A DNA stretch of 41,759 bases from Rhodospirillales bacterium (GTDB taxonomy: Bacteria; Pseudomonadota; Gammaproteobacteria; Steroidobacterales; JAHEKG01), in assembly GCA_024638475.1 (NCBI GenBank), contig JAHEKG010000003.1:1-41759 (forward strand), written 5' to 3'. Below the pieces are notes generated by a model. It did not search any database. It saw only the letters and a list, made by a program, of their open reading frames with translations, and was not told the origin of the DNA. This document shows, piece by piece, positions 10,556 through 31,500 of the stretch (positions within the stretch are counted from its first letter, which is position 1; every line of letters begins with the position of its first letter). The position numbers were made by a program, and so were the translations under genes.

Positions 10556-11446
10556 ATGACCAGTGCCGCGTGGCTCCGGCAGTTTTACCGCAGGCCCTGG
10601 GTCGGGTTGTCGGCATTGGTGGTGGTTTTCTTGGCGCTTCCACTGACCCATAGCATCACCGTGTTGGTCAACCGCACGGTGGGTCGCGAAGACAGCCTAC
10701 TCGTGTTGTTCCCAATCGGCCTGATCGCGCTGATTGCGCTGGTGGCGGGTATCCGCCGTAACCGGGAAGTCAGCGGCACGTTGTTGGGGTTCCTCACGGG
10801 TTATTTGCTCTGGACCGGGTGGGCCAGCTATGCCTTTCGGTTCAACGAGATCAGCTTGAACATGCCAATGGCGGTCTTGGAGGAAGGTGCGCGCCGACCG
10901 GTACACCTGCTGTTCATCCAAGGGTCCTTTGGCATCTGTGTCGTCACGCTGCTGTACTTCGTTTTCGATCGCAACACGCGCTGCAGCGCTTTCATGTGGA
11001 TACAGCGTGTGCTGCGCTTGGGTTTCGGCAAAGCCGACAGCGCACAGCAGCGCAACTATTGCCGGGTCACGTTTATCGAAACCGTTTATGTCATTTGGTT
11101 TTGCTATGCGCTGTCGCTGTTTTTGGGCGATCCCCGTTTCCTCGGCTACGACCACCCGGTGACCTACGGCGTCCTAGCCGTACTGCTCGGCTGGGGAAGC
11201 TACCTGCTTTGGCGGTTGCTTAAGTTTTCGCGTCTCATGGCGGCGATTCGCTATGCGATTCCAACGAAAGCGTTATTCTGGATTCCCGTCGGCGAATTTT
11301 TTCCGCGCTACGGATTTTACGAAGAGTTTTGGCTGCGGCCTTGGGCGCACAAGGGGCCGATGCTGGCGGTGCTCGGGGTTTTCCTCGTGCTGCTGATCGC
11401 AAGCCCGTTGTTGCCTCAGCGCAAGGCCACGGGTGACGGCGCTTGA
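10556..11446 (+). CDS. Hypothetical integral membrane protein (about 8 hydrophobic segments)
   Basis: 296-aa hydrophobic ORF; its TGA stop overlaps the TTG start of the amidase (TTGA). Confidence 0.75.
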   Translation: MTSAAWLRQFYRRPWVGLSALVVVFLALPLTHSITVLVNRTVGREDSLLVLFPIGLIALIALVAGIRRNREVSGTLLGFLTGYLLWTGWASYAFRFNEISLNMPMAVLEEGARRPVHLLFIQGSFGICVVTLLYFVFDRNTRCSAFMWIQRVLRLGFGKADSAQQRNYCRVTFIETVYVIWFCYALSLFLGDPRFLGYDHPVTYGVLAVLLGWGSYLLWRLLKFSRLMAAIRYAIPTKALFWIPVGEFFPRYGFYEEFWLRPWAHKGPMLAVLGVFLVLLIASPLLPQRKATGDGA

Positions 11447-12963
11447 AACTAGCAGCGCGCCACCAGGCACTCAGTCGGCGTTCGTTCGTCGGCCTGATCG
11501 GGTCGGTCGTCTCGGCCTGCGGAGGCGTGGTACGCACGAACTCGTGGGCCGACCGACCATTCACCGTCGCCGGCGCGAGCCGGGCGATCCGCAGGGGCGA
11601 GCTGAGCGCGGAATCGCTCGCCCAAGAGGTTATCGATCGGGTCACGGGCTATCCCAGTCTGGGCGCGTTCGTGCACTTCGATGCCGAGCGGTTGCTCGCC
11701 CAGGCGCGGGCGGCAGACGCGGCGCTGCGTAGGCGGGATGCTCCAGTCGGTCCGCTGCACGGCGTACCGATTGCCCTCAAGGACAACATCGATACCGCGG
11801 CACTGCCGACCACCGGCGCCACGCCGGCCCTTGCCCAGCATCGACCCACTCAAGACGCCGTCGTCGCCCAACGGTTGTTTTCCGCCGGTGCGTTGTTGGC
11901 CGGAAAAACCAACATGGACGAACTCGCCGGCGGCGGCACGACCAGCAATCCCCTGTTCGGCCGCACGGCCAATCCCTATGCATACGCGCATATTCCGGGC
12001 GGCAGCAGCGGGGGTTCCGGCGCCGCGGTTGCGGCGCGCATCGTCCCGGCGGCATTGGGCACGGATACGGCCGGCTCGGTCAGGATCCCGAGCGCCTATT
12101 GCGGCATCGTGGGTTTTCGGCCTTCGACGGGTCGCGTGCCTGTCACCGGCGTCATCCCCTTTGCCTTGACCCGGGATACGGTGGGTCCCATGGCGACGAC
12201 GGTGGAGGACATCCGGCTGCTGGATGCGGTGTTGGCGGGTGAAGAACCCCCTCAAGCAACGCGCGGTTCACTGCAGGACCTCCGCTTGGGTTTGCCGGCC
12301 GAGCCCTATCACCGCAATCTGTCCCCGTCCGTCGAGCGCATATTCTTCGAAACGGTGAAGTTACTCGAAGGGCACGGCGTCAGCTTCGTGCAACAAGACA
12401 TTCCCCGGCTCACCGAAATGAACGACGCCATGACACTGCTGAAGACCGGCATCGAATTGCACCGCGACATCGGCGCTTACCTTGAGCAGAGTGGGCTGCG
12501 TTTGTCCGTGGCCGACGTGATCGACGCCATCGCCGAGCCCTTCGTGCGCGAGTTCTTTTCGCTCTTCAGAGCACCGAGCGCCGCCATGTGGGCGGAGTAC
12601 GATACGCTCATGCGCGATGTCCTGCCCTCGATGCGGGCGACCTACGCGGACTACCTGCGCGAACACCGCCTCGAAGGTGTTTTCTACCCGACCATTCCCG
12701 TCACGGCAGGCATTCACGTGCCGGGCACCGCCGATGTCATTGTCGACGGCGCGCGGCTCGAGGGCGGTGTCTGGCTGAATATCCAAAACGTGTCGCCCAC
12801 GACGCTGTGGGCCTGCGGCGGGGTCGCACTCCCGGCCGGCCTGTCACGGGATGGCCTGCCGGTATCGGTGTCCATCGATGGCCGGCCGAATGAGGACCAG
12901 CGGCTGCTCGCGGTTGCGCAGGCGGTGGAGGCGGTGCTTCCCAAGTTGCCGCCGCCCGCATAG
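11443..12963 (+). CDS. Amidase-signature family enzyme (indoleacetamide/mandelamide hydrolase-like), probable Tat lipoprotein
   Basis: Motifs GPLHGVPIALKDN, PGGSSGGSGAAVAA, ALGTDTAGSVRIPS (Ser-cisSer-Lys triad motifs). N-terminus has SRRSFV followed by VVSAC. Confidence 0.9.
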   Translation: MKLAARHQALSRRSFVGLIGSVVSACGGVVRTNSWADRPFTVAGASRAIRRGELSAESLAQEVIDRVTGYPSLGAFVHFDAERLLAQARAADAALRRRDAPVGPLHGVPIALKDNIDTAALPTTGATPALAQHRPTQDAVVAQRLFSAGALLAGKTNMDELAGGGTTSNPLFGRTANPYAYAHIPGGSSGGSGAAVAARIVPAALGTDTAGSVRIPSAYCGIVGFRPSTGRVPVTGVIPFALTRDTVGPMATTVEDIRLLDAVLAGEEPPQATRGSLQDLRLGLPAEPYHRNLSPSVERIFFETVKLLEGHGVSFVQQDIPRLTEMNDAMTLLKTGIELHRDIGAYLEQSGLRLSVADVIDAIAEPFVREFFSLFRAPSAAMWAEYDTLMRDVLPSMRATYADYLREHRLEGVFYPTIPVTAGIHVPGTADVIVDGARLEGGVWLNIQNVSPTTLWACGGVALPAGLSRDGLPVSVSIDGRPNEDQRLLAVAQAVEAVLPKLPPPA

Positions 12964-13000
12964 TGTCAGCCGGTGCCGTCGGTAAAGGTCACGGCCAACG

Positions 13001-13399
13001 TCAATGCTCCGCCAAGGCCCGCAGGACACCCAGCGCCCGCTCCGCGTCGTCCTGCGGGACGAAGACATGGTCGTGGTAAAAGGCCGCGAAGACGTTGGCG
13101 CTGATATTTGCCGCCGCTAATCGTTCGGTGAACTTGGCGGTGAGCCCGACTGCGGTGAGGCTCGAATGCACCTGGAGCGTAATTCTCTTGAATACGCCGT
13201 CGTAGGACAGGCCTGCGGCATCCGCGATGGTCTGGCGAAGCACGAGGGTGAGTCCCTCCGCCTCGTCGAAACTGGCGATGGGTTGCCACTCCGCGTGATC
13301 CCCGTAGCTTGCTTGCCGGCAGACGAACACGCAGGGATCGGGATCGAGCATCGGGCTGGCCGCTTTGAGTAGTTGGTCTAGGTTGTCGACGCCGCCCAC
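13001..13399 (-). CDS. Small ACT-domain protein (DUF2241/ACT_7 type)
   Basis: GTG at 13399 with GGAG upstream; motifs F.EAEGLTLVL, ITLQVHSSLTAVGLTA, NISANVFAAFYHDHVFVP. Confidence 0.85.
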   Translation of the reverse strand: MGGVDNLDQLLKAASPMLDPDPCVFVCRQASYGDHAEWQPIASFDEAEGLTLVLRQTIADAAGLSYDGVFKRITLQVHSSLTAVGLTAKFTERLAAANISANVFAAFYHDHVFVPQDDAERALGVLRALAEH

Positions 13400-13421
13400 T
13401 TGGACTTCTCCCTGCCGGTTG

Positions 13422-30677: not shown

Positions 30678-30750
30678 GCTGGTGTCTACGCTTCCGGCCG
30701 TCCGTGCTGACCATAGCACCTCCAATCTTCCTCTGGAGGGCGAGCGGACC

Positions 30751-30845
30751 TATGAATCAATAGTCAAAAAATATAATAAAAAATCAATTCAATCAGTAAT
30801 TTATGAATCAACTTGTATTAATTCTATTATTCTATAGAATATATG
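30751..30845. promoter_or_regulatory. AT-rich divergent promoter region with a candidate TetR operator
   Basis: Strongly AT-rich tract between the divergent oxidase and tetR genes. Direct repeat TATGAATCAA at 30751 and 30802; perfect 14-bp palindrome TATTCTATAGAATA at 30828-30841. Confidence 0.6.
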
Positions 30846-30867
30846 GCGGATTTGATCATGTGATTCC

Positions 30868-31500
30868 ATGAAACCCAAGAATACGGATAGCGAAAAATAC
30901 CAGCTGCATAGGCGGGAAGCCGTGCGTGCAGCCGCGACCGTGTTTTCGGCGAATGGATTTCACGGCGCTAGCACCAGCGATATAGCCGAGCAGCTCGGTA
31001 TCAAGCAGGGGAGCCTTTACTACTACTTCGCCTCGAAAGAAGAGGCGCTGGAAGAGGTTTGCCTCTATGGGCTCGAGACTTACACGAAGAATATGGACGT
31101 GATTGCCCACGACACCGGCCAACCCTTCGAGGCACGACTATTCGCGGTTGTCACGAATCACCTGACCAGCTATCGCGACAAAAGCGAGGCGCTCAAGGTA
31201 CACAACAATGAGCGTTTATATCTACCGGAAGCCCGGCGCGTTCGCCTGAAGGCAATGGGTAGCAAATATCGCCGCCAGCTCGAAAGCGTTATTGAACATG
31301 GAATCGAGGAGGGCGCCGTTAGCGCAACCTTGGATGCTCATTTCGCCGCGCAGTCGGTTATCGGAATCTGTAACTCGCTCGGAGAGCATATCGTCCGGGA
31401 AACAGACGTTGACGTATTCGACCTCGTTCGGAAGTGTACGGGCCTTCTGTTGCACGGCATGTCGTCGGAGCAAGGGTCGGGCCGGCCGAATACTTCTTAG
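30868..31500 (+). CDS. TetR/AcrR family transcriptional regulator (KstR2-like C-terminus)
   Basis: HTH motif AAATVFSANGFHGASTSDIAEQLGIKQGSLYYYFASKEE. Confidence 0.93.
   Translation: MKPKNTDSEKYQLHRREAVRAAATVFSANGFHGASTSDIAEQLGIKQGSLYYYFASKEEALEEVCLYGLETYTKNMDVIAHDTGQPFEARLFAVVTNHLTSYRDKSEALKVHNNERLYLPEARRVRLKAMGSKYRRQLESVIEHGIEEGAVSATLDAHFAAQSVIGICNSLGEHIVRETDVDVFDLVRKCTGLLLHGMSSEQGSGRPNTS

Follow-up and report, generated by a model that had tools for sequence, protein, structure and literature searches.

Contig JAHEKG010000003.1 of the Rhodospirillales bacterium assembly GCA_024638475.1, whose 41,759 analysed nucleotides are called the window here, carries between positions 10556 and 31500 a gathering of genes for exported proteins, among them three relatives of the CpcT/CpeT bilin lyases, a protein of the family DUF1838 and three flavoproteins, two of which are amine oxidoreductases (AOs). 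An initial annotation of this region, made from the DNA letters and their translations, read the whole 21 kb as one candidate system for scavenging and catabolising bilins or chlorophyll catabolites. Here, we describe the genes, the company that their relatives keep in other genomes and metagenomes, and a different reading, held with moderate confidence, in which the right half, from about 20.3 to 30.7 kb, would be made up of operons for periplasmic amine oxidation, with the CpcT-like and DUF1838 proteins as accessory partners of the oxidoreductases.

The genome to which the window belongs is a metagenome-assembled genome (MAG) of 3.46 Mb in 384 contigs, 82% complete, designated G000, the window being its contig C92; other genomes are numbered G0xx, loci fetched for comparison Lxxx and contigs Cxx. 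Domain content was read from a Pfam scan of 25 open reading frames (ORFs) between 9.0 and 33.8 kb of the window, export signals were assigned at motif level from N-terminal motifs and crude scoring, and genes in the fetched loci were called with a simple ORF picker. Related genomes enter all counts as kin and not as independent samples.

Flavoenzymes and their neighbours in the right half

Each of the two AO genes stands beside, or is transcribed with, a gene for an exported protein of another family (Table 1). AO2, which probably starts at the methionine preceding its twin-arginine motif, is the first gene of a bicistron that continues after a gap of 15 bp into CpeT3, a two-domain CpcT-like gene. 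AO1 is convergent with a gene whose product has a clear DUF4440/SnoaL-like domain and, at the C-terminus, a DUF1838-like stretch of 20.7 bits, below the family cut-off of 25. The DUF1838 gene itself lies between two CpcT-like genes, convergent with CpeT3 and divergent from CpeT2, and the third CpcT-like gene encodes a fusion to a DUF1330 domain. Twin-arginine motifs, as expected for export by twin-arginine translocation (Tat), are found in six proteins of the region (the amidase, the 18442 protein, AO1, the FAD_binding_2 protein, the DUF1838 protein and AO2), and signals of the general secretory (Sec) type in four (the DUF4440 protein and the three CpcT-like proteins), which together make up the ten or so exported proteins counted in the initial annotation.

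Table 1. Genes of the region, those of the right half first; coordinates refer to the window, with the ORF in brackets where it differs
Feature	Coordinates	Strand	Evidence and setting
AO2, Tat flavin amine oxidoreductase	29220..30677 (ORF open from 30725)	-	Pfam Amino_oxidase E 6e-55
CpeT3, Sec-exported two-domain CpcT-like protein	28179..29204	-	Pfam CpeT/CpcT PF06206 E 2e-23
DUF1838 protein with twin-arginine signal	27278..28165 (27224-28165)	+	Pfam E 2e-26, 93.8 bits vs cut-off 25
CpeT2, Sec-exported two-domain CpcT-like protein	26182..27186	-	Pfam CpeT E 9e-16; subfamily differs from that of CpeT3
CpcT-DUF1330 fusion, Sec-exported	24822..25763 (24795-25763)	+	Pfam CpeT E 2e-27, DUF1330 E 1e-9
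FAD_binding_2 flavoprotein, Tat-exported	23107..24657 (23107-24795)	-	Pfam E 4e-50; upstream of AO1, 19-bp gap
AO1, Tat flavin amine oxidoreductase	21645..23087	-	Pfam Amino_oxidase E 2e-47
DUF4440/SnoaL-like protein, Sec-exported	20356..21615 (20083-21615)	+	Pfam DUF4440 E 2e-10; NCBIfam SgcJ/EcaC family 34.7 bits
TetR-family regulator	30868..31500	+	Pfam TetR_N and TetR_C_24; divergent from AO2
Truncated haloalkane dehalogenase	25655-26287	+	NCBIfam 157 bits vs cut-off 241, N-terminal part only; absent from the initial annotation
Orphan membrane protein	19661..20329	+	no Pfam family; upstream of DUF4440 gene
Exported 18442 protein, initially called 'cupin'	18442-19530 (18442-19647)	-	RR motif; Cupin_2 sub-threshold, 17.4 bits vs 27.2
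Small protein	about 18116-18430	-	module with 18442 protein
Methyltransferase	17048-18100	-	Pfam; module with 18442 protein
Asparaginase-N-like protein	16498-17007 (16498-17133)	-	absent from the initial annotation
ADC-like protein and alpha/beta hydrolase	14936-16442	+	Pfam/NCBIfam
MFS transporter and ACT-domain protein (ACT 13001-13609)	13001-14798	-	Pfam/NCBIfam; ACT gene absent from the initial annotation
Membrane protein and Tat amidase (amidase 11443-12963)	10556-12963	+	Pfam Amidase

Most of the gene assignments made at the outset hold. The three CpcT/CpeT-like proteins all clear the PF06206 cut-off of 21 (58.7-96.6 bits), the three Tat flavoproteins resolve into two Amino_oxidase proteins and one FAD_binding_2 protein, each with its twin-arginine motif, and the Tat amidase, the MFS transporter, the methyltransferase and the TetR regulator have Pfam matches, as does the decarboxylase-like gene, which encodes an ADC-like protein. 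Of the two DUF1838 genes proposed, the one at 27224-28165 stands, and the other, at 20083-21615, also on the forward strand, is better described by its DUF4440/SnoaL domain. The supposed cupin falls short of the Cupin_2 threshold, and the supposed methylesterase is a generic alpha/beta hydrolase.

The association of AO genes with the two accessory families extends through the genome. Four of the eight AO-subfamily genes in G000 lie directly beside a CpcT-like or DUF1838 gene (chance P ~6e-7), the pairs outside the window being a DUF1838 gene followed after 13 bp by an AO gene on C213 and a DUF1838 gene divergent from an AO gene on C163. In the complete genome G020, of the same order, an AO gene followed by a CpcT-like gene is divergent from a DUF1838 gene followed by an AO gene, and pairs of both kinds recur with gaps of 2-15 bp in distant taxa and metagenomes. 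A metagenome scan with the family alignment of CpcT-like proteins returned 197 relatives, from which 80 loci were kept, 59 of them after dereplication at 90% identity. Within a radius of 3 kb, profile models placed an AO gene in 12 of these 59 loci, DUF1838 in 14 and cytochrome c in six, the AO and DUF1838 models, like those used for the counts within G000, having been built partly from the sequences counted, so that such rows match by construction. All six loci with cytochrome c also have an AO gene, so cytochrome c occurs in half of the 12 AO-bearing loci, and in L046 besides. Among the 105 immediate neighbours in the 59 loci, Amino_oxidase is the commonest Pfam family (9 loci), followed by DUF1838 and glyoxalase/VOC (6 each), FAD_binding_4 (5), CoA-transferase, a second short CpeT, TonB receptor and MFS (4 each) and DUF1330 (3). 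Four loci (L087, L088, L092 and L097) are multi-AO islands, in which a pair of DUF1838 and AO genes, a trio of CpcT-like, AO and cytochrome c genes and a further AO gene combine in a layout that resembles the right half of the window.

Monoamine oxidase-like enzymes and, in related loci, a cytochrome c

The twin-arginine motif is invariant in the AO family (17 of the 17 aligned members, AO1 and AO2 included). The family profile aligns end to end with human monoamine oxidase B (MAO-B; E 9e-62), with L-amino acid oxidases (LAAOs) next, and it matches 5ttj and further entries, which we take to be NicA2, at E 2e-30; carotenoid or squalene desaturase models match AO1 and AO2 in the N-terminus that binds flavin adenine dinucleotide (FAD) and nowhere else. 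At the position of the cysteine that holds FAD covalently in MAO-B, the AO family has an aspartate. One tyrosine of the MAO-B aromatic cage is a tryptophan, and the other lies in an insertion that the family is without, at a position that differs between wild-type and mutant MAO-B entries; the site of this missing tyrosine is preceded by an invariant Arg-Gly. An invariant arginine near the flavin could point to a substrate with an anionic group.

In a tree of 30 AO rows, AO1 falls inside a 13-row clade with support of 100/100, ten members of which adjoin a CpcT-like gene and seven of which have a cytochrome c gene nearby; the AOs of L046, L047, L049, L100, L101 and L107 share 58-62% identity with it. 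AO2, on a long branch, belongs to a second group that has weak support and holds a DUF1838-linked subclade with support of 100/100. In four of the loci with relatives of AO1 (L046, from a Woeseiaceae MAG, L100, L101 and L107) an AO gene is followed by a CpcT-like gene and this by one for a protein of 150-170 residues, which has a signal peptide and one CXXCH motif and matches mitochondrial-type cytochrome c (E 3e-25); L088 and L092 have the CpcT-like gene first, then the AO gene and that for cytochrome c. G000 has two homologues of this cytochrome c, on contigs C90 and C113 (44-54% identity). An adjacent pair of a Tat flavoenzyme and a Sec cytochrome c has been reported to flag cytochrome-c-dependent dehydrogenases among the NicA2-related flavoprotein amine oxidoreductases (FAOs), with examples verified kinetically (PMC12224317).

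The FAD_binding_2 protein that accompanies AO1 has flavocytochrome c3 fumarate reductase and urocanate reductase as its nearest solved relatives and weakly resembles 3-ketosteroid dehydrogenases, all its NCBIfam matches being below their cut-offs. A relative with 34% identity adjoins a CpcT-like gene in L045.

Exported CpcT-like and DUF1838 proteins

A search with CpeT3 found 163 proteins at E<=1e-5, the best 120 of which are mostly about 300-370 residues long; among the matches listed, NCBI names some as chromophore lyases. An alignment of 50 members resolves two domains, an N-terminal one that is CpcT-like and a C-terminal one that is more strongly conserved (~125 residues in CpeT3), with H72, Y249, H253 and Y302 near-invariant, an N-terminal hydrophobic segment in 49 of the 50 rows and a twin-arginine motif in none. 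The relation to the lyases is genuine, the 50-member profile matching solved CpcT (4o4o) at E 1e-12 over residues 79-216, aligned with CpcT residues 41-177 and taking in two Cys-containing strands; CpeT3 as a single sequence reaches E 1e-4. The C-terminal domain alone retrieves 124 cluster representatives among 1.84 billion proteins, is almost always terminal in proteins of similar length and is seldom free-standing. It is probably a beta-sandwich, since its weak, repeated matches fall on Cna_B or Big-type immunoglobulin-like repeats of giant proteins; across the 50 rows it conserves no copper-site pattern. Profile comparison detects no relation among the N-terminal domain, the C-terminal domain and DUF1838.

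The three CpcT-like genes of the window belong to three different subfamilies that are about 30% identical. This divergence and their separate placement mean that they are not recent tandem duplicates, and the three copies are best read as old, distinct subfamilies brought together. In a tree of 78 CpcT-like rows, 16 form a clade with support of 100 in which 11 are adjacent to an AO gene. CpeT2 falls in a third group, along with an orthologue in G010 (75% identical, among SDR (short-chain dehydrogenase/reductase) and NAD_binding_10 genes) and with loci linked to DUF1330 and PhzF. The DUF1330 fusion has a counterpart of 57% identity in G009, and DUF1330 is a separate neighbouring gene in three metagenome loci; its nearest solved relatives are plant CRL (PDB 6lix, E 3e-8) and then CpcT (2e-3). 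Elsewhere in G000, a CpcT-like domain is fused to an NmrA-like NAD_binding_10 domain (C119:2984-4327, L020), and CpcT-like and NAD_binding_10 genes are separate neighbours in G010 and G032, so that fusions mirror adjacency. A further CpcT-like domain of G000 ends a 767-residue SGL/NHL beta-propeller protein (C224:1965-4268, L021) encoded next to a TonB receptor gene and a tannase-family esterase gene. Single-domain CpcT-like proteins with lipoprotein-type signals and Pfam E values of about 1e-48 occur in two genomes of the same order (L156, G026:C18, 8478-9221; L157, G018:C239, 5096-5722), the first of them ~4 kb from a porphobilinogen deaminase gene and beside a Mg-chelatase-ChlI-like AAA gene, which is probably coincidence.

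Phycobiliproteins (PF00502) have no match in the window, as first noted, and none in G000 at its 82% completeness, the control Synechococcus elongatus matching as it should; photosynthetic reaction-centre and heme oxygenase families likewise have no match in this genome. Being exported, and in a genome without such matches, the CpcT-like proteins of the window are unlikely to be phycobiliprotein lyases, which bears out the original expectation that exported copies would not assemble phycobilisomes. Literature on DUF1838, DUF1001 and CpcT/CpeT in proteobacteria, the periplasm and heterotrophs, with lipocalins, and on comparative genomics of the Woeseiaceae yielded no description of exported CpcT-like or DUF1838 proteins.

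DUF1838 (PF08894) has 32 matches in G000 at E<=1e-3 and 29 at E<=1e-5, numbers in which some matches are fragments of a single gene, and 22 of the 27 checked have an in-frame twin-arginine motif. Its profile finds no solved relative, and the alignment holds no conserved Cys or His. A role as piperazate synthase was considered and dropped, the family merely flanking two azinothricin-type clusters as an unassigned gene. The two families keep each other's company: three of the eight CpeT matches in G000 fall within 4.4 kb (P ~3e-4 under random placement), a DUF1838 gene lies within 3 kb of four of the eight (P ~3e-4), and among 40 same-order genomes, which as kin are not independent, CpeT occurs in 13, DUF1838 in 13 and both in nine (Fisher P 0.001). 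The two-domain CpcT-like family is patchy in the class, its profile finding 2 of 400 genomes, namely G000 and, with a match to the C-terminal domain only, G009.

A mosaic of modules

The co-occurrence of CpcT-like, DUF1838 and flavoenzyme genes that was proposed at the outset is borne out by other genomes and metagenomes; the unity of the 21 kb is not. Twelve genome loci with relatives of CpeT3, all from marine MAGs (labelled Rhodospirillaceae, Gammaproteobacteria, Woeseiaceae, Arenicella, Caulobacterales and Saprospiraceae), each share with the window the CpcT-like gene and at most one neighbour, this being an AO gene in three, the FAD_binding_2 gene in one and the small membrane protein gene in one. 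The 18442 protein, the small protein and the methyltransferase are conserved jointly in G010 (78, 69 and 72% identity), where the other genes of the window are missing. Because its relatives share so few genes and this module is conserved by itself, the region is a mosaic of small modules and not one conserved system.

The 18442 protein itself has no Pfam or NCBIfam family over cut-off, is present as a family in 2 of 41 same-order genomes and has paralogues of 36-58% identity on C32 of G000 (1886-2830) and on C43, C5 and C9 of G010. Methyltransferases of ~395 residues related to that of its module adjoin CpcT-like or DUF1838 genes on C239 and in L055, L089 and L035. The 19661..20329 membrane protein has homologues in L143 (48%), L044 and L116, each near a CpcT-like gene, the MFS transporter has homologues near CpcT-like genes in L099, L116, L100 and L141, and the membrane protein upstream of the amidase has homologues in L094 and L114. 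For the amidase (best NCBIfam model indoleacetamide hydrolase, 472 bits vs cut-off 532) and the ADC-like, alpha/beta hydrolase and ACT genes, the loci searched show no conserved partner, and the genes from 10556 to 16442 would be only loosely attached to any system. An IaaM/IaaH-like route from amino acid through amide to acid was rejected, the amidase lying 16 kb from AO2 and having no conserved partner. At the other end, the TetR protein may be a local regulator; it has no homologue in the related loci. The truncated dehalogenase gene overlaps the 3' end of the convergent CpcT-like gene by 105 bp, contains a perfect 18-bp tandem repeat of 4.6 copies at 26006-26088, read as YRYVTH repeats; it is probably either an oddity of the assembly or a pseudogene.

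Ordinary housekeeping genes flank the region, with a glycogen operon on the left (1-9006, reverse strand; glgP, glgB, glgA, glgC, malQ) and, on the right (31532-35852), a bifunctional sulfate adenylyltransferase/adenylylsulfate (APS) kinase gene (cysNC), an Lrp regulator, ornithine cyclodeaminase and arginase. Woeseiaceae MAGs supply the nearest named homologues of CysNC (86-87% identity), and the source genome is probably Woeseiaceae-like. Among the sequencing runs listed, the window stretch is found only in DNA runs from sediment metagenomes, and none is an RNA run. Rfam has no match in the window, and scans for promoters and terminators gave no excess over shuffled controls.

Two other recurrent arrangements came to light around CpcT-like genes. 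In L124, L125, L126, L133 and L142 a family III CoA-transferase gene is divergent from the CpcT-like gene, which is followed by a gene whose small, exported product has ~110 residues when mature and contains a cupin-like motif rich in His. In L094, L105, L114 and L115 the CpcT-like gene forms a trio with a glyoxalase/VOC gene and a GlcD-like FAD_binding_4 oxidase gene (355 bits vs the cut-off of 568 for glycolate oxidase GlcD); ~5 kb upstream, two of the four also have a homologue of the 296-residue membrane protein of the window.

Proposed periplasmic amine oxidation and its alternatives

The right half of the region would be a local pile-up of small operons whose enzymes oxidise amine-bearing organic compounds in the periplasm; unrelated or loosely linked modules make up the left half. 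AO1 and AO2, exported by Tat with FAD already loaded and resembling MAO and LAAOs, would be the catalytic cores, accompanied by the Tat-exported FAD_binding_2 flavoprotein. The neighbour of each AO gene comes from either of two exported families that are unrelated to each other, the two-domain CpcT-like proteins (Sec) and DUF1838 (Tat). Because related pairs of AO and CpcT-like genes are apparently co-transcribed with a Sec class I cytochrome c gene, we infer that at least the AO1-type enzymes are dehydrogenases that hand electrons to cytochrome c, as NicA2 and Pnao do, the cytochrome in G000 presumably being one of the two homologues encoded elsewhere. The CpcT-like and DUF1838 proteins would then be accessory partners, not bilin lyases, with the task of docking the enzyme or of binding a substrate or product that is reactive or poorly soluble; binding of substrate or product would be the simplest role for a calycin-like barrel. 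TonB-dependent receptors and an anion-type MFS transporter near many of the loci suggest that a sizeable organic molecule is taken up and a product imported.

Several observations weigh against this reading, beyond the partly circular profile models mentioned above. The whole 21-kb arrangement is not conserved in related loci, and the window has no ORF with a CXXCH motif and no cytochrome c homologue, where most Tat FAOs without an adjacent cytochrome behaved as oxidases in the published survey (PMC12224317). CpeT3 lies outside the AO-linked CpcT-like clade, its own 21-row clade containing three AO-adjacent members, and its closest relatives come instead after a TonB-dependent receptor gene and two to four SBP_bac_5 genes. 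Forty-seven of the 59 CpcT-like loci have no AO gene within 3 kb, and FAD_binding_4 with glyoxalase, CoA-transferase, NAD_binding_10 and methyltransferase genes are among the neighbours seen besides. With neighbours so diverse and most loci lacking an AO gene, the CpcT-like family is not AO-specific, and it may be a general periplasmic adaptor for several types of oxidoreductase rather than a subunit dedicated to AOs.

It is unlikely, though it deserves weighing, that the genes share no function at all, the region being a by-product of two expanded paralogue families and of tandem duplication in a genome rich in exported enzymes, with adjacency reflecting landing sites. The large numbers of CpeT and DUF1838 matches in G000, the many short, alternating transcription units, the very diverse neighbours of both families and the poor conservation of the whole arrangement are what such a history would leave behind. 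It accounts poorly, however, for CpcT-like copies too divergent to be recent tandem duplicates, for closely spaced AO pairs in distant taxa and metagenomes, for AO and CpcT-like trees that each contain a strongly supported clade of linked pairs sharing loci, and for CpcT-DUF1330 and CpcT-NAD_binding_10 fusions that mirror neighbour pairs elsewhere.

A catabolic pathway for hydrophobic compounds other than amines (aromatic esters, lipids or steroid-like molecules), with the CpcT-like and DUF1838 proteins as carriers and the 'amine oxidases' acting on other bonds, strikes us as rather improbable. Tannase/feruloyl esterases, alpha/beta hydrolases, SDRs, VOC/glyoxalase proteins, a Rieske/VanA oxygenase, a pyrroloquinoline quinone (PQQ) dehydrogenase and SnoaL-like proteins among the neighbours would suit it, as would the faint likeness of the FAD_binding_2 protein to 3-ketosteroid dehydrogenases; against it, the alignment of AO1 and AO2 with amine and amino-acid oxidases spans their full length, desaturase models reaching their N-terminus only, and the cytochrome-c-linked relatives fit the pattern of amine dehydrogenases.

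A bolder version of periplasmic amine oxidation would make the CpcT-like proteins, interchangeably with DUF1838, dedicated subunits of a hitherto unsurveyed clade of MAO-like periplasmic flavin amine dehydrogenases, and at its boldest would have the barrel hold a tetrapyrrole and act as electron acceptor or relay; this we regard as a long shot. Stated on its own, the idea that the CpcT-like protein is a redox or cofactor component, a heme or bilin in its barrel relaying electrons from the flavoenzyme to cytochrome c or replacing the cytochrome where no gene for one adjoins, as in the window, is very improbable. The CpcT fold does bind a tetrapyrrole in the lyase, the CpcT-like gene stands between the AO and cytochrome c genes in L046, L100, L101 and L107, and the near-invariant His and Tyr residues could be read in its favour. 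Sec export, though, delivers an unfolded protein without cofactor, and there is no CXXCH heme-attachment motif; the middle position is not fixed, as the order in L088 and L092 attests; DUF1838 seems able to substitute, yet is unrelated and without conserved Cys or His; and most CpcT-like family members adjoin no AO gene.

Bilin or chlorophyll-catabolite scavenging, in which exported CpcT-like proteins would bind the linear tetrapyrroles of phototrophs for degradation by the flavoenzymes and hydrolases, has fold homology as its sole basis and only a slight chance of being right: the N-terminal domain is truly related to a bilin-binding lyase (the fusion being nearest to plant CRL), TonB-dependent receptors lie near many related loci, and G000 has a single gene of the ferredoxin-dependent bilin reductase family (C140:2141-2833, L048; 53 bits vs cut-off 31), but that gene is on another contig, no bilin reductase, heme oxygenase or other tetrapyrrole enzyme gene adjoins any CpcT-like locus examined, G000 lacks a heme oxygenase match, the commonest partner enzymes are AOs, and the family has non-lyase roles in plants. 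We know of no role for amine oxidoreductases in tetrapyrrole breakdown. A link to heme-type TonB receptors was also dropped, none of the 15 receptors scanned near related loci reaching a heme-receptor cut-off (the best, at 284 bits vs cut-off 317, lies 3.5 kb from the fusion gene of G009). The bilin reductase family gene adjoins those for a molybdopterin oxidoreductase and an MFS transporter, and 'pre-PcyA' genes of this family are known in heterotrophs (PMC10151467, PMC13446030). The fallback offered in the initial annotation, oxidation of 'another hydrophobic N-heterocycle', comes nearer to the evidence, given MAO/LAAO-like enzymes whose relatives are linked to cytochrome c as in the nicotine pathway.

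The label 'chromophore lyase CpcT/CpeT' that automatic annotation puts on these proteins in non-phototrophs is almost certainly misleading. The link to AOs and cytochrome c gives a concrete, testable context to the CpcT-like family and to DUF1838, a family without an assigned function yet with about 30 matches in this one sediment bacterium. Should dissolved organic amines prove to be oxidised by these modules in the periplasm, this would matter for understanding how organic nitrogen supplies abundant benthic bacteria with energy and nitrogen. If the bolder version were true, it would give the CpcT fold its first bacterial non-lyase function, and a tetrapyrrole-holding CpcT-like barrel would be the 'unknown periplasmic oxidant' of Tat amine oxidoreductases without an adjacent cytochrome c, one exceptional enzyme of that kind having appeared to require such an oxidant (PMC12224317).

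Comparison with known systems

The CpcT/CpeT lyases share with the window family the N-terminal PF06206 domain and its sequence relation to solved CpcT (PDB 4o4o/4o4s). They are cytoplasmic or stromal single-domain proteins of ~200 residues, whereas the window family and its kin are exported (by Sec signal or lipobox), carry an additional C-terminal, DUF1330, NAD_binding_10 or beta-propeller domain, have no phycobiliprotein in the same genome and are partnered by oxidoreductases. Plant CRL (6lix) and the DUF1001 protein SSG7, which is reported to act in starch grain control, likewise belong to the Pfam family and have roles outside phycobilisomes, but they are eukaryotic plastid proteins with no link to flavoenzymes or the periplasm. 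The soluble flavocytochrome c fumarate and urocanate reductases have a heme- or FMN-binding domain attached to their FAD_binding_2 domain and so differ from the FAD_binding_2 protein of the window, in which Pfam finds no heme/cytochrome or FMN_bind domain.

Methylamine dehydrogenase is a periplasmic enzyme encoded in an operon with amicyanin, a small beta-rich partner, and cytochrome c551i; the likeness is confined to this operon layout, the quinone cofactor and the copper protein setting it apart.

The closest parallel is the NicA2/CycN/Pnao system of Pseudomonas putida S16, as described in PMC12224317 and PMC9396064, in which a Tat-exported FAD amine oxidoreductase and a Sec cytochrome c are encoded in an operon and act in the periplasm, and in which several AO paralogues also lie side by side. 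The AO1 relatives in L046, L088, L092, L100, L101 and L107 show both published hallmarks, the Tat flavoenzyme and the adjacent Sec cytochrome c. Unlike that system, the window itself has no cytochrome gene, and its AO genes are joined by a third conserved gene, CpcT-like or DUF1838, the main text of PMC12224317 containing no occurrence of CpcT, DUF or lipocalin. The AO family is also far closer to MAO-B than to the presumed NicA2 entries, and so may fall outside the NicA2-centred set of that survey. On the reading favoured here, the recently recognised class of cytochrome-c-dependent amine dehydrogenases would extend to a MAO-like clade with a third component.

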